Part shown: positions 29,764 through 63,562 of the stretch, piece after piece | Layout: each line of letters starts with the position of its first letter | Position numbering within the stretch: the first letter of the stretch is position 1 | Assembly (NCBI GenBank): GCA_023379675.1 | Contig: JAMCPL010000006.1 | Span: 12,957-76,956 of the forward strand | From: Actinomycetota bacterium | GTDB taxonomy: Bacteria; Actinomycetota; Acidimicrobiia; Acidimicrobiales; JAMCPL01 | DNA length: 64,000 bases | Direction: 5' to 3' | The notes under the pieces: model-generated | What the model saw: the letters and a program-made list of their open reading frames with translations, nothing else | Database searches by the model: none | What the model was told of the DNA's origin: nothing | Made by a program: the position numbers and the translations under genes

Positions 29764-30609
29764 TCAAGACTTCCCTTCATCATCTATTGCAGTTGCCGGT
29801 AGCCGGTCCAGAGCGGTAGGAGCCACCTGGGCTGGTGCAAGCGCGTATACCTGATCAACCGTATATTTGACCTTTCGCCTGATCTTCCTGCCCAGCCATG
29901 CAATGGGGTCGTACGACGAATCCACCACTCTTTCCTTGAGAGGTATGATGGCGTTGTCCGTGATCTTGATGTGCTCGGGGCATACTTCTGTGCAACACTT
30001 CGTGATATTGCAGAATCCCAGCCCCAGATGTTGGCGGGCGAGCTCTCTGCGATCCACGGTGTCGAGTGGATGCATATCAAGAGATGCAAGTCTCACGAAG
30101 AATCGCGGTCCAGCATAGTAAAGCTTGTTAACTTCATGGTCACGGATCACATGGCAGACATCCTGGCAGAGAAAACATTCTATGCACTTATGGAACTCTT
30201 GGGCACGATCAATGTCGACTTGTTGCATCCTGTAAGTACCGTCAGGCTCGGGGTCGCCGGGGGTGAAAGGTGGTATCTGGCGTGCCATGACGTAGTTGAA
30301 CGAAACATCGGTGACCAGATCTCGGATGATCGGGAAGGTCTTCATGGGAGTGATCGTGATCTTGTCGTTGGGGAGGGTATCCATCCTGGTCATGCACATA
30401 AGGCTGGGCTTTCCGTCAATTTCTGCAGAGCAGGATCCACATTTGCCCGCCTTGCAGTTCCACCTGCAGGCGAGATCAGGTGCGAGCGTTGCCTGGATCC
30501 GGTGTACTACATCCAGTACCACCTCACCTTCGACTCGTTCCAGATTGTAGTCGAAGAAGGAGCCGCCGGAGGAATCTCCTCTCCAGATACTCATGGTTAC
30601 TTCAGTCAT
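29764..30609 (-). CDS. sdhB: succinate dehydrogenase/fumarate reductase iron-sulfur subunit
   Basis: 2Fe-2S motif CRWNCKAGKCGSCSAEIDG...MC, and cluster motifs CIECFLCQDVC and CNITKCCTEVCP. Confidence 0.9.
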   Translation of the reverse strand: MTEVTMSIWRGDSSGGSFFDYNLERVEGEVVLDVVHRIQATLAPDLACRWNCKAGKCGSCSAEIDGKPSLMCMTRMDTLPNDKITITPMKTFPIIRDLVTDVSFNYVMARQIPPFTPGDPEPDGTYRMQQVDIDRAQEFHKCIECFLCQDVCHVIRDHEVNKLYYAGPRFFVRLASLDMHPLDTVDRRELARQHLGLGFCNITKCCTEVCPEHIKITDNAIIPLKERVVDSSYDPIAWLGRKIRRKVKYTVDQVYALAPAQVAPTALDRLPATAIDDEGKS

Positions 30610-32447
30610 CAGTGGTCCTCCTTGGGTGCTTGACCGGTATGGTCATCTTCGAATAGTGCCTTCAATTCCTCGGGCATTTCCGGCAGCGGTTCAGGCTGTA
30701 CGGTGTGCGTGCCGTCCTGCATTCGCTGGACGAGATTGACTTTGGCGAATTCCGGATCGGGAGAAGGGTAGTCGTCCCTGGTATGGCCGCCTCGGGATTC
30801 CTTTCGGTCCAAGGCGCCCCTGGTCACCATCTCGGATACTGCCAGCATTGAAGGGAGGTCGGTGGCGAGGTTCCATGCAGGATTGTATTCCCTACCTCCC
30901 TGGACAGATGCTTTGCTTGCACGTTCTTTTAGCTTCGAGATCTCATCAAGAGCCTGGAGTAGTTCGCTTTCCGTACGTATGATACCCACCAGAGTTTGCA
31001 TGCATTCCTGGAGATCGGCATGTATGCGGTACGGACTTTCGCCGGTTTCCCTACTGAATGGCGCTAGGGCTTCCTTAGCGGTTTCCGTGGCCTGAGACAC
31101 CTCGGGATCGACCGTCCCGGCCAGCCCTTCGGCATAATCTGCTGCACCGATTCCGGCCCGCCGTCCGAATACGATCAGGTCTGAGAGGGAGTTGCCTCCA
31201 AGCCTGTTGGCGCCATGCATCCCCCCGGCAACCTCTCCGGCGGCGAAGAGCCCAGGTACGGTGGTGGCTGCCGTGTCGGCATCCACCCTTACCCCGCCCA
31301 TCATATAGTGGCAGGTGGGGCCGACTTCCATCGGTTCTTGAGTGATGTCGACTCCAGCCAACTCCAAGAACTGGCTGTACATGGAGGGAAGCCTTCTCTT
31401 GATGTACTCTGGTGTACGTCTAGAGGCTATGTCGAGGAACACCCCTCCATGAGGACTTCCCCGTCCAGCTTTGACCTCGGCATTGATGGCCCTTGCAACT
31501 TCGTCCCGCGGCAATAGGTCGGGTGTGCGCCGTGCCGAGGCATGGTCCTCATACCACCGGTCTGCCTCCTCCTCTGTTTCGGCGGTTTCCGCACGGAACA
31601 TCTCAGGTATGTAGTTGAACATGAAGCGCTGGTTTTCGGAGTTGAGCAGTGCACCGCCATCACCTCTTACTCCCTCGGTGACCAGCAGCCCTCTTACGGA
31701 CAGTGGCCACACCATGCCGGTAGGATGGAACTGCACGCACTCCATGTCTATCATATCGGCGCCTGCGGAGAAAGCCAGCGCATGGCCGTCACCAGTCGAT
31801 TCCCAAGAGTTCGAGGTATATTTCCAGGATCTGCCTATGCCTCCCGTTGCCAGAACGATGGCCTTTGCCTTGAACAGCACGAATTGTCCGCTAGGTCTTG
31901 TATATCCGAGTGCGCCACAGGCGTTTCCGCTTGCATCTACAAGTATGCGTAGTATCTTGTGCTCCATGAAGACCTCGATGCCCACGCTGGTGGCCTTGTT
32001 CTGAAGCGTCCGTATCATTTCGAGGCCGGTGCGGTCTCCGACATGTGCAAGCCGGGCATACCTGTGACCACCGAAATCACGCTGGAGTATGCGCCCATCA
32101 TCTGTACGGTCGAACAGAGCGCCCCACGCTTCAAGCTCCAGCACGCGATCTGGGGCTTCCTGAGCATGCAACTGGGCCATGCGCCAGTTGTTCAACATCT
32201 TGCCACCGCGTACCGTGTCTCTGAAGTGCACCTTCCAGTTGTCCTCTGAGTACACGTTGCCGAGCGCAGCGGCCACGCCGCCTTCAGCCATCACAGTGTG
32301 CGCCTTACCGTAGAGGGACTTGCAGATTACTGCCGTGCTAAGTCCTCTCGACCTGGATTCTATGGCCGCTCTAAGCCCAGCGCCACCTGCGCCTATGACT
32401 AGTACATCGAATGACTGGGTCAATATATCTTCTGTATTTACATCCAT
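30609..32447 (-). CDS. sdhA: succinate dehydrogenase/fumarate reductase flavoprotein subunit
   Basis: FAD-binding DVLVIGAGGAGLRAA, the HTVMAEGG covalent-FAD His region, and HPTG / HGANRLGGNSL motifs. Its stop abuts the sdhB start. Confidence 0.95.
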   Translation of the reverse strand: MDVNTEDILTQSFDVLVIGAGGAGLRAAIESRSRGLSTAVICKSLYGKAHTVMAEGGVAAALGNVYSEDNWKVHFRDTVRGGKMLNNWRMAQLHAQEAPDRVLELEAWGALFDRTDDGRILQRDFGGHRYARLAHVGDRTGLEMIRTLQNKATSVGIEVFMEHKILRILVDASGNACGALGYTRPSGQFVLFKAKAIVLATGGIGRSWKYTSNSWESTGDGHALAFSAGADMIDMECVQFHPTGMVWPLSVRGLLVTEGVRGDGGALLNSENQRFMFNYIPEMFRAETAETEEEADRWYEDHASARRTPDLLPRDEVARAINAEVKAGRGSPHGGVFLDIASRRTPEYIKRRLPSMYSQFLELAGVDITQEPMEVGPTCHYMMGGVRVDADTAATTVPGLFAAGEVAGGMHGANRLGGNSLSDLIVFGRRAGIGAADYAEGLAGTVDPEVSQATETAKEALAPFSRETGESPYRIHADLQECMQTLVGIIRTESELLQALDEISKLKERASKASVQGGREYNPAWNLATDLPSMLAVSEMVTRGALDRKESRGGHTRDDYPSPDPEFAKVNLVQRMQDGTHTVQPEPLPEMPEELKALFEDDHTGQAPKEDH

Positions 32448-32465: not shown

Positions 32466-33317
32466 CTAAAATATCTTGTAATCATGAATAATGCCACTGG
32501 CGACAAGGCGTACATACAGATCAGTCAGTGCGACAAAGATGAGGCTTACCCATGCAAGCTGCATGTGCCTTGCATTGAGCGGCGTAATGGCTTTCCAGAA
32601 CCTGTAGCGGATTGGGTGTTTGGAAAACTTATTAAGCTGCCCGCCGCAGAGATGCCGGCAAGCGTGGCATGATACTGTATATATCCACAGCAGGGCAGCG
32701 TTGACGCATAGCACGAGAGTGCCTACGCTGAACCCTATGCCTTGTCCTGGAAAATTGAATGCAAGTACTGCATCCATCGTGAGCACTACGTTGAAGAGAA
32801 GAGCAAGGTAAAGGAAGTAGCGGTGGATATTCTGGAGTATGAGCGGGAAACGGGTCTCCCCAGTGTAACTCTTGTGCCCGTCTGCCACCCCGCATGCCGG
32901 AGGGGATTGCCAGAAGGAACGGTAGTAGGCTTTTCTATAGTAGTAGCAGGTCAACCGGAAGCCAAGAGGAACTATTAGTATCAGCAGCGCAGGTGAGAAG
33001 TTCCAGAAGGACGCCCATATGCCTAGAGGGTGGCTACCGGCTACACGTTGGCAGCTGTTTGCAATGCATGGAGAGTAAAAGGGTGAGATGAGGTTGCGAT
33101 GTTGCTGCGCTCCGACGTAATAGTAGCGACCCTGGAAAGCTGCGAATGTCGCGTAGGCGATAAACGATGTCAGTACGGTCACCGTTACGGCAGGGCTCAG
33201 CCACCACCTGTCCTGGCGCAAGGTGCGCCGACCCTCCGGTCCTCCGCGAGGTTTGCCTATCTCAACGGGAATTGCCGTCCCGGACTTGACTCCGGTGTCC
33301 TCAACTGTGCTTACCAC
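32466..33317 (-). CDS. sdhC: succinate dehydrogenase membrane anchor (single large cytochrome b-type subunit)
   Basis: 283 aa with 5-6 TM segments. First gene of the anchor-flavoprotein-FeS order seen in actinobacterial Sdh operons. GTG start preceded by AGGAGG. Confidence 0.75.
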   Translation of the reverse strand: MVSTVEDTGVKSGTAIPVEIGKPRGGPEGRRTLRQDRWWLSPAVTVTVLTSFIAYATFAAFQGRYYYVGAQQHRNLISPFYSPCIANSCQRVAGSHPLGIWASFWNFSPALLILIVPLGFRLTCYYYRKAYYRSFWQSPPACGVADGHKSYTGETRFPLILQNIHRYFLYLALLFNVVLTMDAVLAFNFPGQGIGFSVGTLVLCVNAALLWIYTVSCHACRHLCGGQLNKFSKHPIRYRFWKAITPLNARHMQLAWVSLIFVALTDLYVRLVASGIIHDYKIF

Positions 33318-45873: not shown

Positions 45874-46251
45874 CTAATGGATCTTTGCAAGAAAGGAATC
45901 GGCATCCACCACAACCCTCGTGATGATACCGGCGCAAATTGTTCCTGGTTCGCCGTAGGCCTTTACTGAAAAAGTGAGTCTCCGGCCTTCGACCTTTTCA
46001 AGAGTGGCTTCTGCTATGATATCCGATCCGATTTTGACGGGCGCTACGTGGTCCATCTGTATCCTGAGTCCCACAGATGTCCTGCCTGGTGGCAACAGCG
46101 GGTCGACGGCCTTGCATGCTGCTTCCTCGCAGAGCGCTACGAGACGCGGCGTGGCGAGGACCGCGACGCTACCGGATCTGAAGTGCGTGGCGGTGTCATC
46201 TTCTCCAACATGTAGCTTGACTGTTTTATGGAGGCCGGGCTCGAGTGCCAT
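45874..46251 (-). CDS. hotdog-fold thioesterase family protein
   Basis: 125 aa from MALEPGLHK with HFRSGSVAVLATPRLVALCEEA...VGLRIQMDHVAP. The upstream part of the 220-aa ORF is antisense to tldD and not credible. Confidence 0.7.
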   Translation of the reverse strand: MALEPGLHKTVKLHVGEDDTATHFRSGSVAVLATPRLVALCEEAACKAVDPLLPPGRTSVGLRIQMDHVAPVKIGSDIIAEATLEKVEGRRLTFSVKAYGEPGTICAGIITRVVVDADSFLAKIH

Positions 46252-46348
46252 AGGCACTAGACTAACCCAAAAGAGCGGGCAGGTGAAAAGTTCGCCCGCG
46301 TGGAAGTCTAACCAAGGGATTGGCCTGGATTGGAGACGAGTAATACTT

Positions 46349-47746
46349 ATGCTGATTGACCCAGAAGTACTGGATAGAGTTATCGACCATGCTCTACGAA
46401 ATGGCGGGGAGTTCGCAGAGGTCTTCGCAGAGGACAGGACCTCGATGTCAGCCGTGCTGGATGACCGGAAGGTCGAAGAACTGGTGACCGGAACCAGCCG
46501 TGGCGCGGGGGTAAGGGTCATCTCTGGCGAAACCACGGGGTATGCTCATACGGCAGATTTGTCTGAGTCAGGACTGATGAAGGCGGCAGAGGTGGCTTCC
46601 GCTGCATCTCGGAACGGATCAGAGCAGGGCCACATCAGGCAGGTTGCCCTTGAGGAAGCCGTCGCCTCAAACCCCTCCATCGTTCATGTCGATCCATCAG
46701 AGGTGGCCAAGTCCCGGAAGATAGACCTGCTGGCAAGGGCTGATGACGCAGCCAGGGCTGGGCGGGATCCCATTACGCAGGTGAGTGCATCCTATGGTGA
46801 ATCCAAGAGGGCGATCCTGGTGGCGTCAAGCGGTGGCAGGTTGGTGGAAGATGATCAGGTACGTACTCGCTTTTCGGTGTCTTGCATAGCGCTGGGCGAC
46901 GGAGGCATGCAGACCGGGTACGAGACCGCAGCGAGAACTACCGGGTTCGAATTGTTCGATGACGTTGAAGTGGAAGACCTGGCTGCAAAGGCCGCCACCA
47001 GAGCTGTCACCAAACTGTCCGCCAGGCCGGCGCCTTCAGGAGAGCTGACCGTGGTGCTTGCCTCGGGCGGCGGCGGAGTGCTCTTTCATGAGGCATGTGG
47101 GCATGGGCTCGAGGCGGATCATATAGCAAAAGATTCCTCGGTCTATGTTGGCAAGGTTGGCGAGCAGGTGGCGGGATCTCTGGTGACGCTGGTGGATGAC
47201 GGGACTCTCGGCGGCGAATGGGGCAGTTATGGCATTGATGACGAGGGCAATCTTCCAGGTCGTAATGTGCTCATAGAGAATGGTGTGCTTGGTGACTACA
47301 TGTGGGATGTAGAGAGGGGGAGGAAAGCCGGCAGGAACTCCTCGGGAAACGGGCGTCGCCAATCATATAGACATCTCCCCATGGTCAGGATGACCAACAC
47401 CTTCATATTGCCAGGGCAGGATGATCCTGATGAGATAGTGGCTCAGACCCCATACGGGATATTCGTCGCGCAGCTTGGTGGGGGGCAGGTGAATATCACT
47501 ACGGGAGATTTCGTGTTCGGCATGACTGAGGCTTATCTCATCGAGGACGGGAAGATCACCGCGCCACTGAGGGACGCCAACCTGATCGGCAATGGTCCGG
47601 AAGTACTGATGAGGATTGATGCTGTTGCCAATGATTTTGGCGTGATGCCGGGCACATGCGGGAAAGATGGGCAGAGCGTACCTGTGGGGTGCGGCCAGCC
47701 TACGCTGCGGATCCAAGGTGTTACCGTCGGCGGGACCGCCGGGTAA
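46349..47746 (+). CDS. tldD: metalloprotease TldD
   Basis: The start MLIDPEVLDRVIDHAL is at 46349. HEACGHGLEAD metal site and C-terminal CGKDGQSVPVGCGQPTLRI. Confidence 0.9.
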   Translation: MLIDPEVLDRVIDHALRNGGEFAEVFAEDRTSMSAVLDDRKVEELVTGTSRGAGVRVISGETTGYAHTADLSESGLMKAAEVASAASRNGSEQGHIRQVALEEAVASNPSIVHVDPSEVAKSRKIDLLARADDAARAGRDPITQVSASYGESKRAILVASSGGRLVEDDQVRTRFSVSCIALGDGGMQTGYETAARTTGFELFDDVEVEDLAAKAATRAVTKLSARPAPSGELTVVLASGGGGVLFHEACGHGLEADHIAKDSSVYVGKVGEQVAGSLVTLVDDGTLGGEWGSYGIDDEGNLPGRNVLIENGVLGDYMWDVERGRKAGRNSSGNGRRQSYRHLPMVRMTNTFILPGQDDPDEIVAQTPYGIFVAQLGGGQVNITTGDFVFGMTEAYLIEDGKITAPLRDANLIGNGPEVLMRIDAVANDFGVMPGTCGKDGQSVPVGCGQPTLRIQGVTVGGTAG

Positions 47747-47785
47747 AGGTTTTCCCGTTTTAATATTCGAGCGAAAGGATGAGCG

Positions 47786-49303
47786 ATGGAAGGCGATTTA
47801 CTTGATATAGCGAAACGCGTGGCGGGAATGGCCCAGCGGGGAGAGCAGGTGGAGGCTTACGTGTCCCGGAATGTATCGACCGAGGTCCGGGCCTACAACG
47901 GTGAGTTGGAGCATCTCGTATCGGCGTCGTCAGATGGTGTCGGGATACGTGTGATTGCCGGCGAAAGGCAGGGTTTTGCCTATACGGGGTACCTGAGTGA
48001 TGACTCCATTGCTGTTACGCTGGCCCAGGCCCGTGAGAATGCGGTCTTCGCAACTGCCGACGCAAGCGTTTCGATGGCTGAGCCGGATGGCATAGCGGCG
48101 GTGGAGATGGATCTCCTTGACAGTGGCCTAGACTCGGTGAGCACAGAGGCAAAGGTGGATCTTGCCCTGGAACTGGAGAGATCGGCACGGCACGGTCACC
48201 GCCAGATCAGGCAGGTCGACTCGGCGGATTATGCTGACGTGATATCGCAGGAGGCGGTGGCCAATTCAGAAGGTATAGCCGCTTACAGCGAACACAGCTA
48301 TTGTGAAGTTTCGGTGTCCGTGATTGCCGGTGAGGGGTCACAGTCGCAGAGCGGTTCCGGCTTTTCTGTAGCCAGGGGTTTTGATGGACTTGATCTGGAG
48401 AAGGCTGCAGGCGATGCCGTGCATCGTGCTGTGCGCTTACTGGGGGCGGGGAAACCTGCCACGGCTGGATATACGGTCGTGTTCGATCCGCGCGTTACGG
48501 CAACTTTGCTCAGTGTCGTTTCTACGGCACTCTCTGGTGAAGCCGTCACCAAGGGTAGGTCATTCCTTGCGGGCAGGGTGGGCGAGCAGGTGATGGTAGC
48601 CGGTGCATTAGTTGTGGACGATCCTACCGATGCCAGGGCACTGTCAGCTGACTCCTATGATGCAGAGGGCCTGGCGTCGAGGCGCATTGTCCTGGTGGAG
48701 GATGGGAGATTGCTAGGCTATGTTTACGATTCCACATCGGGAGCCAGGGCGGGACATGCCTCAACTGGTTCGGCAGTCCGTTCAGGGTTTGCGTCGACAC
48801 CGGTTGCGGCATGCAGGGCGGTCGTCCTTTCGGCAGGTGGAAGCTCTGGTACCGACGGCAATGTCCAGGTCAGCAATTCTGGGCCTGGAGGCGTTGCGTC
48901 TGGCGGCGTTGCCCGGGGCGATCACTTCGGCGCCGTCACCAGTGCTCGCAATAGCGGAACAGTGGGTGGGGACCTGGGGGACAGGAAGCCCGGCCAAAAT
49001 GGTACTTCTGGTTACGGCGCAGGCGAGATAATCAGCGCAGTTGGTGACGGGGTGTATGTGCAGTCGGTCACGGGCATGCATTCAGGGGTGAACCCGGTAA
49101 GCGGCGACTTCTCAGTAGGGGTGGAGGGCCTGATGATCCGGGGCGGCGAGTTGGCCGAGCCAATACGCGAAGCCACCGTGGCATCCACGCTTCAGAGGAT
49201 GCTCCTGTCCATCGTGGGGATAGGGTCTGATGTGGAATGGTTGCCCGCCAACGCAGCCGGCCAAACTATTGCAATCAGTGGAATGATGCTGTCAGGAAAC
49301 TGA
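47786..49303 (+). CDS. pmbA: TldD partner protein PmbA/TldE
   Basis: PmbA_TldD fold with GMHSGVNPVSGDFSVG near the C-terminus. A roughly 60-aa Gly/Ser-rich insertion is present. Confidence 0.85.
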   Translation: MEGDLLDIAKRVAGMAQRGEQVEAYVSRNVSTEVRAYNGELEHLVSASSDGVGIRVIAGERQGFAYTGYLSDDSIAVTLAQARENAVFATADASVSMAEPDGIAAVEMDLLDSGLDSVSTEAKVDLALELERSARHGHRQIRQVDSADYADVISQEAVANSEGIAAYSEHSYCEVSVSVIAGEGSQSQSGSGFSVARGFDGLDLEKAAGDAVHRAVRLLGAGKPATAGYTVVFDPRVTATLLSVVSTALSGEAVTKGRSFLAGRVGEQVMVAGALVVDDPTDARALSADSYDAEGLASRRIVLVEDGRLLGYVYDSTSGARAGHASTGSAVRSGFASTPVAACRAVVLSAGGSSGTDGNVQVSNSGPGGVASGGVARGDHFGAVTSARNSGTVGGDLGDRKPGQNGTSGYGAGEIISAVGDGVYVQSVTGMHSGVNPVSGDFSVGVEGLMIRGGELAEPIREATVASTLQRMLLSIVGIGSDVEWLPANAAGQTIAISGMMLSGN

Positions 49304-54424: not shown

Positions 54425-55318
54425 CTAGCTTACTACGATGACTTCACCCATCATGTAACCGAGATGGTGCATTCCCCATCCGCACGGCATTATACAGTGC
54501 CAGTAATACACGCCCGGGTTGGGAGCGACAAACTGGAACGTAGTCACATGAGGACTCGAATGTGACCCTGGATGTATCATCACGTTGAGATGCAATTGGG
54601 CAGAGGTGAAACTGTGTGTATCCGTGCTGAAGTTGGTCACGGTTACGTCCACATGCTCTCCGGTCTTTACAGTAAATCGTGCGGGCACGTAGGCATCCTG
54701 TAGTATGCCACCATGGGGAGCCGGCTTGCCGTAGAGGGGCGGGGGATTGATGTCCAGCATCACCTGCGCGATACCACTGTGTGATGAGATCATGTCTGCT
54801 GCCGGCCTGGCGCCGCCGGCCTGGGTCGCGTGATTGGCAAGAGGACTGTGCAGCAGGCCGGTGCCTACGAGGACGGATATTCCGACTATGGCGGCAGATG
54901 CAGCCAGGATGGATAATATACTGCTGCGCGATGGTCTATGGTCGGTTGCATGCGGTGGCGTTGTACCTGAACGCCTACCAGCATAAGATGCCTGCAATGA
55001 TGCATAACTTGTACTACCGGCACCGGCACCGGTGCTTCCGCCGGCAACTCCCGGGTCGCCGGCAAACGATGGCGTAGCGGATCCCAGCTCTTGCATGCCG
55101 TTGCCCAGTCCGGACAGCTGGGATGCCATTTCCCAGTCCAGCCCCGCTTCACGGGCACTCCATGCTTCATCAGGGTAGAACCCTTCCCGGCTCCAGTACC
55201 CGGCCTCCCAGGCTCGGAAGCCGGCCATCCGCCACCGCCTTGCCATATGCGGATCGAATCCGGCGGCGGCCCATCCTTCAGCGTGGTACCGCCAGTTGGG
55301 TAATCTTTCACCTTCCAT
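54425..55318 (-). CDS. single-pass membrane protein: cytoplasmic Trp-rich repeat domain + extracytoplasmic cupredoxin domain (CuA-like CxxxC)
   Basis: GAGGTGG lies 6 nt upstream of the ATG at 55318. One TM segment (ILSILAASAAIVGISVLVGTGLL). The C-terminal domain has THSF...YYWHCIMPCGWGMHHLGYMMGEVIVV. Confidence 0.7.
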   Translation of the reverse strand: MEGERLPNWRYHAEGWAAAGFDPHMARRWRMAGFRAWEAGYWSREGFYPDEAWSAREAGLDWEMASQLSGLGNGMQELGSATPSFAGDPGVAGGSTGAGAGSTSYASLQASYAGRRSGTTPPHATDHRPSRSSILSILAASAAIVGISVLVGTGLLHSPLANHATQAGGARPAADMISSHSGIAQVMLDINPPPLYGKPAPHGGILQDAYVPARFTVKTGEHVDVTVTNFSTDTHSFTSAQLHLNVMIHPGSHSSPHVTTFQFVAPNPGVYYWHCIMPCGWGMHHLGYMMGEVIVVS

Positions 55319-55403
55319 ATTCAACCACCTCGATGCCGTACCGGATTGCAGGCAACGCGGGCCGATTCATGATGGCCTGCACGTCCCGAGGAAGGATTTG
55401 AGC

Positions 55404-55682
55404 TCAGCGCACGAGGGTCTGCAGTGCGTACGCTATAGCAGCGACTATTGCTACCGATATGCCCAGTTCGATAAGAGTGACCAGCACGGTGACAGCAGTA
55501 AGCAGTGCCGTTTTCGCGGCCGGAGTAGGGGGGATCTCGATCGGGCCTCCTTCCATTGCAGCGCTGTCGCTGACATCCTCCCTGGTAAGTGTCGCGACGC
55601 TGCCTGCAGGTGCCTCGCGAATTGCCCGTGTTTCGTCATTGCGGACCGCTTGGCTCGCAATTTCTGTATCTCGTATTACCAT
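55404..55682 (-). CDS. 92-aa tail-anchored membrane protein, hypothetical
   Basis: AAGGAGG lies 7 nt upstream of the ATG. An acidic N-terminal half is followed by a C-terminal hydrophobic stretch (ALLTAVTVLVTLIELGISVAIVAAIAYAL). Confidence 0.55.
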   Translation of the reverse strand: MVIRDTEIASQAVRNDETRAIREAPAGSVATLTREDVSDSAAMEGGPIEIPPTPAAKTALLTAVTVLVTLIELGISVAIVAAIAYALQTLVR

Positions 55683-55742
55683 GTGTATACCTCCTTTGGT
55701 CTGTATTCCATGGGTTCCAGATGTTTCTGCATGCTTGGCATT

Positions 55743-56393
55743 TCAACGCGCATATCCGTGATGTGTGGCCTTGAACAGGATATTCACCCTTACTGCTGTT
55801 CCGAAGAGCACCAGCCACAAAAGGCCGAGAACGGTCAGCAATATACCGGCTGCCCATTTACCGAGTGTGCCGTCAGGCCTCTGCGATTGTACGGTTCCCT
55901 TGAACGGTGATGATGCGGCAGTGGCGGAATAGGTCGTGGAAGAGGATGCCAGGGTACTCCCCGACGCACTGTCGATCTGGGCAACAAGGGGCTGCTTCCC
56001 TGTCCATGTGGGACTGTAAGCCAGGGTGGCTACACCGTTTGAGCCAGTGGCGGCTTTGCCGAGGAGCAATAACGGAGCATTACCGAATTGTCCGGTAAAT
56101 TGCGCGGCACCTACGTAGAAATCCACGGCTATGCCGGCGAGTTGGCCTGCAGCTCCAGACGCCGGTTTGCCTTGCTGCGATACCGTTGCGGTCAGGATTA
56201 CATCACGTGCGCTGGTAGGAGCCTGGGTGGCACGCAACGTCAATGTATAGGGTGGAGGCTTCGAGGCGGCCTGCGATGCGTATGCCGTGCCGGAAGCCAT
56301 GCCGGTAAGGATCAGGGCAGCGACAGCACAGGATCCTGCGGTCAGGGACACTCTTGTCACCAGGGTCCGGAGTGTACGGTTAGGCATTTGCAT
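55743..56393 (-). CDS. secreted beta-rich (Ig-like?) protein with C-terminal membrane anchor, hypothetical
   Basis: AAGGAG lies 7 nt upstream of the ATG. Signal peptide (...ALILTGMASGTAYA), a Thr/Ser/Ala-rich beta-strand-like core, and a C-terminal TM segment (AAGILLTVLGLLWLVLFGTAV). The start overlaps the upstream gene by 14 nt. Confidence 0.6.
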   Translation of the reverse strand: MQMPNRTLRTLVTRVSLTAGSCAVAALILTGMASGTAYASQAASKPPPYTLTLRATQAPTSARDVILTATVSQQGKPASGAAGQLAGIAVDFYVGAAQFTGQFGNAPLLLLGKAATGSNGVATLAYSPTWTGKQPLVAQIDSASGSTLASSSTTYSATAASSPFKGTVQSQRPDGTLGKWAAGILLTVLGLLWLVLFGTAVRVNILFKATHHGYAR

Positions 56394-57906
56394 GCATTAT
56401 CTCCTTTCTGTCGCCAGATGGGCTGTTGCCGGTCGATGCCATTACACTGAGCGTGCTCAGGTCTTCCTCCAGCCCTTCCGCTTCAGCAGCCATTTCCTCC
56501 ATATCCGCCACCGGCAGGATCGGGAAGAACTTGAATACGACGAGCAACAGCAACGGTATTGCAGCAGTTGCCGCCAGGGTGATCGTTATCGGAATCCAGG
56601 TGAAGTGGAAGGTACCCCAGTTGGCACTCGCAACATTCAGGGGTGACTTTACCAGTGGCTCGGTAGCCGGCGGTATGACGATCACCAGTCTCTTCACCCA
56701 CATCGCCAGGAGGATTATCGCCGATGCCGTCGCTATGCCCTTTACATTACGAGTACGGCGGAACGCGAGTATCACAAGAGGGAGCAACCCTGCACCCACT
56801 ACGAAGAACCAGAATGGTATCCAGTAACGTCCCATGATTGTCTGGCGTACCCAGGCCGCATTGCCTATGGTTCCCGAGTAGCCGTCTACGAGGTATTCGG
56901 TAAAGGTAAGGTAGAGATAGGTGGCGCCCAGCGCGATCAGTATGAATCCCAAACGCACGAAGTGCTTCTCAGTGATGTAACGTTCCAGGCGGTACCCCTT
57001 TCTGAATGCCGCGGCCATGACTATGACTAGCGCTACGCCACTATAGAGGGCGCCTACCACAAACAGTACCGGGAAGATGGTCTCCAGGTATCCTGCGCGG
57101 CTTGAAGACGAGAATGCGAAGCTCAGCACCGAGTGAACCGAAACTGCCATGGGAATGATCATGATGGATATGAGTCCCAATGCGCCCTGAAGTACCCTGC
57201 GCTGCGGGATGCTGCCTATCCAGTTGCCACCAACTACGGTGTACAGCTTCTTGCAGGTACGCGTCTTCAGATTGTCTGGACCGGCCGAGAGTCGCTCCAA
57301 GGTGATCTTCAGGTCGGGAATAAGAGGTAGGTAGAAGAATACGACCGTGGCCAGCAGGTAAGTGCTCACTGCAAAGAAGTCCCACAGAATCGGAGACGAC
57401 AGGTTCCAGTATGGGGGCCAGACCAACTCCCATATCCTCGGGGCCTCTCCGAGGTGAGGCACGATGAACATCATCCCTATCGGCAACGTCACCAGCGCAG
57501 TGGCTTCGGCAATCCGGGTGAGCGGTGCGCGCCAGCGCGCCTTGCTGAGCCGTAATACAGCGGAGACCACTGCCCCTCCGTAGGTGACTCCGATGAACGC
57601 CACAAGGTCTGCCTCGTAGATCGCCCAGAACGCTTGGTTGTTGTATCCTGCGGCACCCAATCCATCGCGAAGTTGCATGACCCATGCAACGATGCCCGCT
57701 ATCACCACGACACCGAGTGTGATCACCGCCGTCCACCACCATTTGCCCGTTTCCAGTACCGGGCGCATGGCGGCTTCGCGTATGTCTTCTCTTGGCGGCA
57801 CAGGATCTACACCATCGTAGGCGGTTCCTATGGACTTTTCGAGCGTCCTGCTGGTCATTGTGGTACTTGTTCCAGTTTCCATTGCGTCAACCTGCTCCCT
57901 CATCAT
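56380..57906 (-). CDS. NrfD/PsrC/ActC-like polytopic quinone-interacting membrane subunit
   Basis: 508 aa with about 10 hydrophobic segments. The N-terminal WWWTAV...AGYNNQAFWAIYEADLVAFIG pattern is typical of the NrfD family. It overlaps the upstream FeS gene by 20 nt. Confidence 0.8.
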   Translation of the reverse strand: MMREQVDAMETGTSTTMTSRTLEKSIGTAYDGVDPVPPREDIREAAMRPVLETGKWWWTAVITLGVVVIAGIVAWVMQLRDGLGAAGYNNQAFWAIYEADLVAFIGVTYGGAVVSAVLRLSKARWRAPLTRIAEATALVTLPIGMMFIVPHLGEAPRIWELVWPPYWNLSSPILWDFFAVSTYLLATVVFFYLPLIPDLKITLERLSAGPDNLKTRTCKKLYTVVGGNWIGSIPQRRVLQGALGLISIMIIPMAVSVHSVLSFAFSSSSRAGYLETIFPVLFVVGALYSGVALVIVMAAAFRKGYRLERYITEKHFVRLGFILIALGATYLYLTFTEYLVDGYSGTIGNAAWVRQTIMGRYWIPFWFFVVGAGLLPLVILAFRRTRNVKGIATASAIILLAMWVKRLVIVIPPATEPLVKSPLNVASANWGTFHFTWIPITITLAATAAIPLLLLVVFKFFPILPVADMEEMAAEAEGLEEDLSTLSVMASTGNSPSGDRKEIMHANA

Positions 57907-58783
57907 TTTCCAGGTCCTGATCGTGACCGAGAATGTAGTAGACCCTTGGGTGCGTGCCGTAGGACTCCTTGAATTTCACTGCGTCGTTGGCGGCTAGGAA
58001 CTCCGACAGTTTCACGACCTGGCCGCTGGCGTTCACTGCGACATCGGTGGTCAGATCTCCCATGTACAGAGCGTCCATCGGGCAGTTGGATACGCATTCA
58101 GGGATCTTTCCCATTGGAAGCATTGCGGCACAGAATATGCACTTGCCGACAGTTCCCTCGACCTGTGGAACAGGCCACTCGGGTTCCTGGGGGAATGGCT
58201 GCCTGGGGGCCGACTTTGCCGGTCCCCAGTTGAAATACCTGGCCTGGTAAGGGCAGGCGTTCATGCAGATGCGGGTGCCTATGCAGCGGCTCTGGTTGAC
58301 AAGCACCAAGCCTTCGTCGGTTCGGAAGTTTGCCTTTACTGGACAGACCTGTACGCAAGGCGGATCTTCGCACATCATGCAAGGTCGCGGCATATGATAG
58401 GTATTGCCCGAAGCATTGGTCATGGTGAACACATGCATCCAGGTCTGGTCCTTGTGCAGGTAGTGGGCCTCCTGGCACGCTGCGGTACATACTTTGCAGC
58501 CATTGCAGTAACGGAGATCGATGACCATGCACCACTGGTGTGCAGGTTTGCTCGAGGCGCCCGTTGCTTGCGCCGCCGCCGTGGTTACGGCACCCGCCTT
58601 GTGGCCGCTTGCCGCCTCCAGTACCCCGGTCCCTGCGAGTGCTCCGGCAACTCCTATTGCACCGAGCCGCTCCAGGAAATGCCGTCTGCTCAGGCCTGCG
58701 TCTTCGCAGCTTGGTGTTTCTTGGGCATCCGTCGTGGGCGGTCTTGTGGCTATTTCCACCGGCTGCCGGCTACTGCTGGTCAT
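57887..58783 (-). CDS. Tat-exported four-cluster ferredoxin subunit (NrfC/PsrB/ActB2-like)
   Basis: Twin-arginine motif SRRHFLERLGAIGVAGALAG. Cluster motifs CNGCKVCTAAC, CMMCEDPPCVQVCP, CIGTRICMNACP and CIFC...CVSNCP. Confidence 0.85.
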   Translation of the reverse strand: MTSSSRQPVEIATRPPTTDAQETPSCEDAGLSRRHFLERLGAIGVAGALAGTGVLEAASGHKAGAVTTAAAQATGASSKPAHQWCMVIDLRYCNGCKVCTAACQEAHYLHKDQTWMHVFTMTNASGNTYHMPRPCMMCEDPPCVQVCPVKANFRTDEGLVLVNQSRCIGTRICMNACPYQARYFNWGPAKSAPRQPFPQEPEWPVPQVEGTVGKCIFCAAMLPMGKIPECVSNCPMDALYMGDLTTDVAVNASGQVVKLSEFLAANDAVKFKESYGTHPRVYYILGHDQDLENDEGAG

Positions 58784-58830
58784 CTGTCATACCTCATAAT
58801 GCCTGTCTCCTCTGGTGATGTGATCATGGA

Positions 58831-59451
58831 TCATTGGACCGTGAGTGATCCCGTCATGTATCCCGGGGTGACCATTGGTCCGCCCATACCGGTTGGTCCC
58901 GTTCCGCAAGGCGCCTCGCACTGCCAGGTGTAAGTGCCTGCTTTTGTGACATGGAAGGTGAAGGTGACCACTGCCGGTTCGCTCTCGCCTCCAGGGCCCG
59001 TGGTGGATGGCGCCGCAGGTATTGGAACATTCAATTGAAGTGATGCCACAGTAAAGGTGTGAGATATGTTCGCGTTAGGTATGGAAGTGACAGGACTTCC
59101 GTTGACGGTCTCGGTGCCACCTTCCACCTTATCGAATAGGGAGCCTGCTGAGAGTGGGGCGGTCCCGTTGTCGTAATTGTAGATGGTCAATACTACGGTG
59201 GTGTTGCTGGGGATGGCGAGATCGGCGGGAGAGAACTTTGGCCATCCCTTGTGGCTGATCATCCCTCCGGTAAGGATGGTCATTGACTCGTGGATGGTGG
59301 TCGGATGGGATGCCTGGCTGGTGGTGCTCGGGGTGTTGCTGCTGCATGCCGAAGCAACCAGTGCCAGCAGTGCCAGCAGTGACGGGATCAGCAGCCTTGC
59401 TTTGCGTCCCTCATGTGCCACATCGGATCCACCGGAAACGAACATCTTCAT
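58831..59451 (-). CDS. lipoprotein with cupredoxin domain resembling the cytochrome oxidase subunit II CuA domain
   Basis: AAGGAAGG lies upstream of the ATG. Signal peptide with the Cys lipobox LVASAC. ISHTF...YTWQCEAPCGTGPTGMGGPM resembles HSF...YxGQCAELCGxxHxxM of CoxII. Confidence 0.7.
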   Translation of the reverse strand: MKMFVSGGSDVAHEGRKARLLIPSLLALLALVASACSSNTPSTTSQASHPTTIHESMTILTGGMISHKGWPKFSPADLAIPSNTTVVLTIYNYDNGTAPLSAGSLFDKVEGGTETVNGSPVTSIPNANISHTFTVASLQLNVPIPAAPSTTGPGGESEPAVVTFTFHVTKAGTYTWQCEAPCGTGPTGMGGPMVTPGYMTGSLTVQ

Positions 59452-59474
59452 TTTGCCTTCCTTTCAATAATTCG

Positions 59475-59503
59475 AGTATGAGTTTTCCTTCAATACTGGG
59501 CAA
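59475..59503 (-). promoter_or_regulatory. candidate promoter of the cupredoxin/NrfCD operon (TTGCCC-17-CATACT)
   Basis: On the minus strand, ttgccc is at 59503-59498, followed by a 17-nt spacer and catact at 59480-59475. It lies about 24 nt upstream of the start codon at 59451. Confidence 0.3.
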
Positions 59504-59785
59504 CGAGCCTTTGTGTGAGTGTGAACTCTAACTGGCACTTACACGAGACAGGTGCTCATAGGTGTAAGTATGGCGGATTACCGGCGGGAATGAAACGGTG
59601 AAATGCCCTACGTATGGATGGTGATTACCCGTAACTGATTGGAGCAGCGGTACAGGTAAACACGTATGTACTGGTAGGTGCATACGTAGGTAATTGGCCA
59701 GTGTCGTTTATGGCAGGTTGAACGGAAGGAAGCATGCGGACGAGTCGCTTTGGATGCATTCAGGAAAAGCCGTTAGGCTGGTGGT

Positions 59786-62888: not shown

Positions 62889-63264
<376 letters not shown>

Positions 63265-63274
63265 CATCTCCACA

Positions 63275-63562
63275 TTGACTTCGATGCGCTGCATTGCAGT
63301 CGATGACATCGGGTTGCTTCCTATCTCGGCTGATGCTGCAGAAGGACTCTACCGCTTGGTGGATGCCGCATATGAGAAAAGATCAATAGCGGTATCGTCC
63401 AATATTCACCCGTCGGGATTCGACCAGCTTATGGACAAGACCATAGCATCTGCACTCGTGGATCGGCTATTGCACCATGCCCATGTGATAGTTACCTCTG
63501 GCGAGTCAATACGCCTCGTCGATGCCACCTCAGGAAAGGGGGTGACGCCACTGGCAGGTTGA
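63275..63562 (+). mobile_element. 5'-truncated IS21-family istB (helper ATPase) fragment
   Basis: Only the C-terminal roughly 90 aa are present: AVDDIGLLPI...LYRLVDAAYEKRSIAVSSN...ALVDRLLHHAHVIVTSGESIRL. The Walker A region is absent. Confidence 0.7.

Follow-up and report, generated by a model that had tools for sequence, protein, structure and literature searches.

What kind of respiratory complex is encoded by an operon that sets an iron-sulphur (FeS)/NrfD-type quinone module between genes for cupredoxins? The question is raised by a six-gene locus in a stretch of DNA of an acid-mine actinobacterium from contig JAMCPL010000006.1 (64,000 nt, the whole of which is called here the window), on whose minus strand the open reading frames (ORFs) of the operon were checked. 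The six genes, whose products are designated p1 to p6, most likely encode one extracytoplasmic-facing respiratory complex, apparently a heme-free and molybdopterin-free derivative of alternative complex III (ACIII). The reading that we favour, and to which we give an even chance, is that this module is a heme-free, ACIII-derived menaquinol:cupredoxin oxidoreductase. Its core, p1-p2-p3-p4, is conserved in about 80 species-level genomes, mostly metagenome-assembled genomes (MAGs) of Acidimicrobiia. The genes and the region ahead of them are as follows.

58831-59451, minus strand: p1, 206 aa, lipoprotein cupredoxin
57887-58783, minus strand: p2, 298 aa, ferredoxin with four clusters, exported by twin-arginine translocation (Tat)
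56380-57906, minus strand: p3, 508 aa, 10-helix NrfD-family membrane subunit, quinone-interacting
55743-56393, minus strand: p4, 216 aa, anchored protein with an immunoglobulin (Ig)-like domain
55404-55682, minus strand: p5, 92 aa, small tail-anchored protein
54425-55324 (alternative span 54425-55318), minus strand: p6, 299 aa, single-pass cupredoxin
59452-59785: presumed operon promoter region, 334 nt between p1 and a divergent acyl-CoA synthetase gene, placed by position only

The six same-strand ORFs were found at exactly the coordinates, and with the spacing, given in the initial annotation of this DNA, and its proposal of a single operon is likely to hold for genes that are this close or overlapping. 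From p1 to p6 the gaps are 47, -20, -14, 60 and 85 nt, the 14-nt overlap being that between the end of p3 and the start of p4. The last gap is counted from the probable start of p6, the ATG at 55318, ahead of which stands GAGGTGG; with the first in-frame TTG as the start it would be 79 nt. Shine-Dalgarno-like sequences lie ahead of p1, p4, p5 and p6, and that of p5 is strong (AAAGGAGG). A consensus scan, which is uninformative on promoters, returned no sigma-70-like site in 59452-59785 and no convincing internal terminators, and an Rfam scan found no regulatory RNA near the operon. A motif scan detected no CxxCH in any of the six operon proteins. The 38 large ORFs of the window that were scanned against Pfam are housekeeping genes, with no molybdopterin (Mo-pterin) enzyme, cytochrome c or heme-copper oxidase among them. 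The earlier statement that the locus has neither a heme c motif nor a Mo-pterin gene is true here and in about 80 homologous loci.

The membrane subunit p3 had initially been described as NrfD/PsrC/ActC-like. Membership of the NrfD family was borne out (83.8 bits against Pfam PF03916, cut-off 25.8; about 10 hydrophobic helices), and the description could be narrowed to ActC specifically. The only PDB sequence matches of p3 were to ActC chains, namely 6f0k_C of Rhodothermus (1e-45), 6btm_C of Flavobacterium (8e-39), 8k9e_C of Chloroflexus and 6lod_C of Roseiflexus, with E-values ranging overall from 1e-45 to 3e-31. An AlphaFold2 model of a homolog 66% identical to p3 superposed on four ActC structures with target-normalised template-modelling scores (TM-scores) of 0.82-0.83 and fitted ActF less well, and Foldseek searches with this model returned ActC at E ~1e-15 and ActF at E ~1e-6. 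Among the NCBIfam models the best was DsrP, at 63 bits for a cut-off of 350, and the HybB model gave only 29.7 bits. In ActC, the quinol site comprises His139, Asp169 and Asp253, and Arg395 has been proposed as a gate (R. marinus numbering; PMC8076601). H151, D176 and R406 of p3 align to His139, Asp169 and Arg395, respectively, and all three are invariant in the p3 family. The sequence and structure matches identify p3 as an ActC-like NrfD subunit. A generic Psr/Nrf-type module was also considered and rejected, p3 having matched ActC and left PsrC unmatched both in PDB sequence searches (E <= 0.01) and in Foldseek (E <= 0.001).

Regarding the FeS subunit, the Tat-exported ferredoxin with four cysteine cluster motifs that had been announced for the second gene was recovered. 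p2 matches Pfam Fer4_11 with 59.3 bits, carries the Tat motif SRRHFL and contains four Cys groups, CxxCxxCxxxC, CxxCx4CxxxCP, Cx2Tx2CxxxCP and CxxCx11CxxxCP. The third of them, RCIGTRICMNACPYQARYFNW, has three cysteines (C-I-G-T-R-I-C-x3-C-P), and its CIGTRIC lines up position by position with CIGTRYC in ActB of Rhodothermus and with CVGTKYC in that of Chloroflexus; at this position ArrB and PsrB have a four-Cys group, with CIGC and CIAC. Among the NrfD-type complexes tabulated in PMC8076601, ActB is the FeS partner of an NrfD-like subunit to which one [3Fe-4S] and three [4Fe-4S] clusters are ascribed, the [3Fe-4S] cluster adjoining the quinol site. The same complement of one [3Fe-4S] and three [4Fe-4S] clusters is predicted for p2, and 64 of 81 related loci have the three-Cys third group. 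The alignment of p2 to ActB covers residues 795-956 only, and p2 consists of the ferredoxin domains without the molybdopterin-like N-terminal domain. The best NCBIfam model for p2 was DsrO (165 bits, cut-off 200), and the TtrB, ArrB and DmsB models scored far under their cut-offs. From its motifs and alignments, p2 is classed as a ferredoxin of the NrfC/DsrO/ActB C-terminal-domain type. With an ActC-like p3 and an ActB-type three-Cys motif in p2, the module is best viewed as a stripped-down ACIII rather than as a generic Psr/Nrf pair.

The first cupredoxin, p1, has a signal helix and the lipobox ASAC, and its match in Pfam is sub-threshold only. An AlphaFold2 model of p1, computed with 39 homologs, reached a predicted local distance difference test score (pLDDT) of 82.9 and was recognised by Foldseek as a cupredoxin, the best structures being a Bacillus Cupredoxin_1 protein (4hcf), rusticyanin, the ba3 CuA subunit, AcoP and auracyanin. 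The p1 family profile matched best the CuA domains of ba3 COX2 (E ~4e-4), and in the profile alignment H131, C178 and C182 of p1 coincide with H114, C149 and C153, the CuA ligands of ba3. The residues H131, C178, P181, C182, M193, M199 and D94 are invariant in the p1 family, and the position of the second CuA His is occupied by Ser, Thr or Pro. This family is small, with 473 representatives at E <= 1e-10 among 1.84 billion proteins, and the p1 sequence of the window recurs unchanged in an uncultured actinobacterial MAG. The longer members are tandem cupredoxins or carry N-terminal extensions, one tandem member exceeding the Pfam COX2 threshold, and no fusion of a p1-type protein to an FeS, NrfD or heme domain was found among these 1.84 billion representative proteins. 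Stand-alone p1-type genes, which have no FeS/NrfD neighbours, occur in MAGs labelled Sulfobacillus (L086), Firmicutes (L087) and Thermaerobacter (L088). In these stand-alone proteins the first Met of the loop is replaced by Trp.

The second cupredoxin, p6, consists of a Trp/Arg-rich N-terminal region, a single helix (residues 136-154) and an external cupredoxin domain that scores 28.6 bits against Cupredoxin_1 (cut-off 27) and gives weak NosZ matches in NCBIfam. The NosZ CuA domain 1fwx was matched at E = 5e-5 by the single p6 sequence and at 2.5e-9 by the p6 family profile, with the His and C-x3-C in register. A homolog search with the p6 cupredoxin domain as sole query returned nothing. The candidate ligands of p6 are H235, C275-x3-C279, M283, H284/H285 and M289; a His, C-x2-P-C and two Met are invariant in the p6 family, and a His two residues past the first Met is common, yet it is Thr or Asn in many members. 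Residues 1-130 (54932-55318, minus strand) form a cytoplasmic Trp/Arg/Glu-rich repeat, roughly W..AGF.P..A..W, with no family match. This N-terminal extension is confined to the closest relatives of the window and is absent from other p6-type proteins.

Judged by profile and alignment, p1 and p6 are relatives of CuA domains with a non-canonical His-Cys2-Met2 ligand set. A canonical CuA site is not established, since p1 lacks the second CuA His and the p6 family does not conserve it. The loop Cys-x(n)-His-x(m)-Met of type-1 blue copper proteins was not found either, there being no invariant loop His in the p1 or the p6 family. The initial description of both proteins as CuA-like cupredoxins therefore stands for the fold, the first His, the C-x3-C and the Met, and falls for the second CuA His.

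A scan of 185,579 species genomes yielded 173 that encode a relative of the NrfD protein, and the best 80 of these 173 comprise many MAGs and the genome of the cultured Ferrimicrobium acidiphilum (L055). The NrfD protein has 850 relatives in a large protein collection, and those that are named are nearly all from Acidimicrobiales or Actinomycetota MAGs. The earlier guess of an Acidimicrobiia-type host fits these relatives, Acidimicrobiales MAGs and F. acidiphilum. Synteny was counted over 82 non-redundant related loci, each denominator being the number of loci with enough flanking sequence. The FeS gene immediately precedes the NrfD gene in 64 of 64 loci; 62 of 64 have one to three copies of a p1-type cupredoxin gene upstream, and 69 of 71 have p4 downstream of the NrfD gene. 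Where both flanks were available, a cupredoxin of some kind belongs to the same-strand cluster in 57 of 58 loci; a p6-type gene is present in 34 of these 58, either upstream of p1 or downstream of p4. Cupredoxins, where present, number one to four, and there is a single NrfD-family gene per locus. The six-gene arrangement that had been put forward is thus conserved in its core of p1-p2-p3-p4, whereas p5 and the N-terminal extension of p6 are limited to the closest relatives.

Apart from the families described here, clustering of the neighbouring ORFs within +/-10 kb in the 82 loci revealed no recurrent one, and notably neither a cytochrome or oxidase nor a hydrogenase or Mo-pterin enzyme that recurs. 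Of the 3250 neighbouring ORFs of the related loci, 23 contain CxxCH, and none of these recurs. A hidden cytochrome or Mo-pterin partner nearby was therefore rejected on the basis of this clustering, of the CxxCH scan of the 82 loci and of the Pfam scans of the window ORFs.

Two other genes or gene pairs accompany the cluster in many related loci. One encodes a membrane protein ("X") of about 330 aa with 6-8 helices, which occurs with the cluster in 36 of 58 loci (for example L055 8897-9934 and L003 9024-9986) and is not encoded in the window. Its gene lies between the FeS and NrfD genes, downstream of them or past regulator genes, and the protein bears the motifs LG..W..D..LQ.QP.MF and GG..T...TD.N.GPL. 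Protein X had no Pfam, PDB or NrfD match, and the idea that it is a b-type cytochrome was discarded, since it has no conserved His or Cys and no match in Pfam or PDB. The other is a pair of genes for a NarL-type response regulator and a HisKA_3/PAS kinase, which adjoins the cluster in 44 of 58 loci, usually in divergent orientation (L005 5544-7219, L072 3334-4785), and lies neither next to the operon nor elsewhere in the window. The presence of this pair beside the cluster suggests that its expression depends on a signal.

The remaining two proteins are probably structural subunits. At its N-terminus p4 has a helix that is either a signal or an anchor, and at its C-terminus another; its external domain is all-beta and Ig-like, and it had no match among Pfam families or PDB sequences. 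In P0051, P0094, P0099, P0103 and P0113 and in six loci it forms the C-terminal part of a fusion with the NrfD protein, and in the AlphaFold2 model of one such fusion, P0051, a beta-sandwich of seven strands precedes a helix; p4 is thus likely to be a structural partner of p3. p5 has a C-terminal helix (residues 66-84), and no homologs of it were found beyond L001, L006 and L007, the nearest relatives.

We infer that the cupredoxins assemble with p2 and p3 and bind copper, and we propose the following electron path, direction of flow and acceptor. The ActC-like, 10-helix p3 would bind and oxidise menaquinol near the outer face of the membrane, and the electrons would pass to the [3Fe-4S] cluster and then through the three [4Fe-4S] clusters of p2. 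From p2 they would reach the copper centres of cupredoxins held at the surface, p1 by its lipid anchor and p6 by its transmembrane helix. The reduced cupredoxins would in turn deliver them to a high-potential acceptor, most likely the CuA site of an aa3-type oxidase, although soluble Fe(III) would be possible in acidophiles. The quinol protons would be released outside, and the conserved gate arginine of ActC leaves room for an additional proton translocation. The direction from quinol to copper is favoured because the potentials of cupredoxins and of CuA lie well above that of menaquinone, and because p2 has the ActB-type [3Fe-4S] motif, as in the quinol-oxidising ACIII.

Several observations weigh against this proposal. 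What ties the cupredoxins to p2 and p3 is synteny alone, with no linking fusion or structural model. The stand-alone genes described above indicate that p1-type cupredoxins are not obligate subunits. With the second CuA His missing from p1 and variable in the p6 family, the metal site of these proteins may not be a CuA electron-transfer centre. In p3, the position of Asp253 of ActC is an Ala (A264) that is invariant in the family. Finally, 17 of 81 loci have four cysteines in the third group of the FeS protein, a form seen in a more distant sub-clade, so that the [3Fe-4S] cluster is not universal.

The system to which the module comes closest is ACIII, for which the structures 6F0K, 6BTM, 6LOD and 8K9E (ActABCDEF) served as references. 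Both have a 10-helix ActC-type subunit with the His, the Asp and the gate Arg, an FeS protein that is exported by Tat and contains the ActB-type CxGTxxC, and redox subunits on the outer face, and the quinol-oxidising direction is probably shared as well. The ACIII of Chloroflexus is, moreover, said to reduce a cupredoxin, auracyanin. By contrast, the module lacks the pentaheme ActA and the monoheme ActE (no CxxCH in the six proteins, and none recurrent in the 3250 neighbouring ORFs), the Mo-pterin-like N-terminal domain of ActB and the second NrfD-like subunit ActF, and it has Ala in p3 in place of Asp253 of ActC. It has instead one to four tethered, CuA-domain-like cupredoxins, an Ig-like anchored subunit and, often, the unrelated 6-8-helix protein. 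With ActA, ActE, ActF and the N-terminal domain of ActB all missing, the module should not be filed as ACIII itself.

DsrMKJOP, through DsrO and DsrP, and QrcABCD, through QrcC and QrcD, likewise combine a Tat-exported NrfC-type ferredoxin with a 10-helix NrfD-like protein and have no Mo-pterin catalytic subunit, but they use multiheme cytochromes c (DsrJ, QrcA) and operate at low potential. No dsr or qrc genes were detected here with NCBIfam models or by clustering of the neighbours in related loci. As the Dsr, Qrc, Psr, Ttr, Arr and Nrf models all scored under their cut-offs, the module is not an equivalog of any of these systems. It also differs from the enzymes with molybdenum or tungsten bis-pyranopterin guanine dinucleotide (Mo/W-bisPGD) and a PsrBC-type anchor (Psr, Ttr, Arr, Dms) in that no Mo-pterin subunit is encoded in the window and none recurs in the 82 loci. 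The initial annotation had assigned Mo-pterin or multiheme partners to all characterised NrfD complexes, a generalisation that overlooked hydrogenase 2 (Hyd-2) of E. coli, in which the NrfC/NrfD-type pair HybA/HybB works with neither a cytochrome nor a Mo-pterin enzyme (PMC8076601). The pair in Hyd-2 serves a [NiFe] hydrogenase, with electrons moving towards quinone, unlike the flow proposed here.

On the copper side, p1 and p6 share with the CuA domains of COX2 and NosZ the cupredoxin fold and, in register, the N-terminal His, the C-x3-C and the downstream Met, and these domains are their best PDB profile matches. They differ in the second His (C-x3-C-x3-H), which is absent from p1 and not conserved in the p6 family, in a longer ligand loop with two invariant Met and in being stand-alone tethered proteins rather than parts of an oxidase or reductase. 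The rusticyanin/AcoP chains of Acidithiobacillus ferrooxidans also link quinone machinery to extracytoplasmic iron chemistry through acid-exposed cupredoxins (PMC8790237), and rusticyanin and AcoP were among the top structural matches to p1. Their centres are, however, of the type-1 or green copper kind, have Cys-His-Met loops and are linked by bc1 and cytochromes c, with no FeS/NrfD module.

The same complex might be dedicated to the iron respiration of acidophiles, with electrons passing from menaquinol through FeS and a cupredoxin to soluble Fe3+ or, in reverse, from Fe2+ to quinone; the reverse option, in the order Fe2+, cupredoxin, FeS and quinone, would be driven by the proton-motive force through the ActC-like channel. 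We regard this as possible and, on balance, unlikely. The hosts speak for it, in that the relatives are nearly all Acidimicrobiia MAGs, many apparently from mines or other acidic sites and F. acidiphilum included, and that the p1-type cupredoxin is common to Sulfobacillus-like MAGs. This environmental enrichment is, though, judged by record names only, and the homologs extend to MAGs labelled Dormibacteria and to one from a Danish soil survey, hosts that are perhaps not acidophilic iron-cyclers. F. acidiphilum respires with Fe(II) and with Fe(III) at pH 1.5 and has no multiheme cytochromes, and both its path between iron and the membrane and the route to its aa3 oxidase are unknown (PMC8350767). 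Acidimicrobiia and Sulfobacillus oxidise Fe(II) and reduce Fe(III) by mechanisms that are unresolved, as are those of ferric reduction outside Acidithiobacillus in general (PMC8790237). A Met-rich, His-poor site would presumably suit a low pH and a high potential, yet passing electrons backwards into FeS clusters from a centre at ~+0.6 V would be energetically very steep, and no iron-specific gene recurs beside the cluster in the related loci. A more far-reaching version, decidedly unlikely in our estimation, would make the cluster the missing membrane link of Gram-positive acidophile iron respiration, an energy-coupled oxidoreductase able to work in either direction (menaquinol:Fe(III) or Fe(II):quinone) via a hitherto unknown natural copper centre, an acid-stable, high-potential, CuA-derived Cys2-His-Met2 site that reacts directly with soluble iron at the surface.

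The cupredoxin-fold proteins could also be copper-handling or thiol-redox proteins rather than electron carriers, which appears very unlikely to us. Their Cys pair and His/Met would then bind Cu(I) in the manner of the Sco and PCuAC chaperones or cycle as a disulfide, and the FeS/NrfD pair would supply quinol electrons for the reduction of Cu(II) at the surface, for its detoxification or for metallation. The invariant set of a His, C-x3-C and two Met, with no second CuA His, accords with this view, C-x3-C with a His being also the copper motif of Sco and Met-rich loops being typical of Cu(I) sites; so do the variable copy number, the stand-alone copies and the presumably copper-rich waters of mines. 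Nevertheless, the ligands occupy the positions of a cupredoxin redox site (the strand His and the loop joining the final two strands), the nearest relatives by sequence are electron-transferring CuA domains, and no copper resistance gene of the CopA, CopZ or CsoR type recurs nearby. We know of no copper-homeostasis system with a four-cluster ferredoxin and an ActC-type quinol module. Least probable among the explanations considered is that the FeS/NrfD pair serves as membrane module for an enzyme with a catalytic subunit (Mo/W-pterin, hydrogenase or cytochrome) encoded elsewhere, the cupredoxins being mere neighbours. The NrfD-family complexes tabulated in PMC8076601 do each have a separate catalytic subunit. 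Against such an arrangement, p2 has its own Tat signal and therefore needs no Mo-subunit to cross the membrane, no such partner recurs within +/-10 kb in the 82 loci, and cupredoxins are almost invariable in the cluster, often in two to four copies; in some gene calls the stop of the cupredoxin gene even overlaps the start of the FeS gene (L003 7445-8095 and 8092-9018).

In a review of 2021, the quinone site of NrfD-family respiratory complexes is wired to hemes, Mo-pterin or [NiFe] centres (PMC8076601). If the menaquinol:cupredoxin oxidoreductase proposed here is real, FeS and copper proteins only would be added to the partner types of this very widespread bioenergetic module, and the ActB/ActC core of ACIII would be workable without cytochromes. 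The complex, being present in the cultured Ferrimicrobium, would also be a candidate for the link between the quinone pool and the exterior in Gram-positive acidophilic iron-cyclers that lack multiheme cytochromes (PMC8350767). The copper site of the cupredoxins may be a natural derivative of CuA with Met in the place of a His ligand, and as such would be of interest to copper bioinorganic chemistry. In agreement with the initial proposal that the combination is undescribed, no published description of NrfD, ActB/ActC or ACIII together with cupredoxins, or in Acidimicrobiia or Ferrimicrobium, was found in open-access full texts, subscription journals being outside the scope of the search, and the two NrfD-family papers examined make no mention of copper partners.

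Regarding the remainder of the window, the operon is flanked on one side by a leuA-type gene, a CHAD-domain gene and an aldehyde dehydrogenase gene and on the other by the acyl-CoA synthetase gene and an HMGL-like gene. Two tandem genes for PmbA/TldD-family metallopeptidases occupy 45974-49303 (plus strand); this pair, leuA and the CHAD gene are also found near the cluster in an 85%-identical relative (L001), which indicates local synteny. A full-length bacterial RNase P RNA of class A was identified at 62893-63264 (plus strand, 259.9 bits). It is directly followed by an ORF of 95 aa (63275-63562, plus strand) that matches only the C-terminal part of IstB, the helper ATPase of IS21, and is probably the remnant of an insertion sequence. 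On the minus strand, the genes for a succinate dehydrogenase/fumarate reductase flavoprotein (30609-32447) and its Fe-S subunit (29764-30609) are accompanied, after the flavoprotein gene, by a 283-aa ORF (32466-33317, minus strand) that has no Pfam match and possibly encodes an unusual membrane anchor. Finally, the local G+C content rises from 0.53 (22-24 kb) to 0.64 (24-26 kb), the mean of the window being ~0.57, and the segment 22001-26000 holds a cytidylyltransferase-like gene and a gene for a YbfB-type transporter of the major facilitator superfamily.

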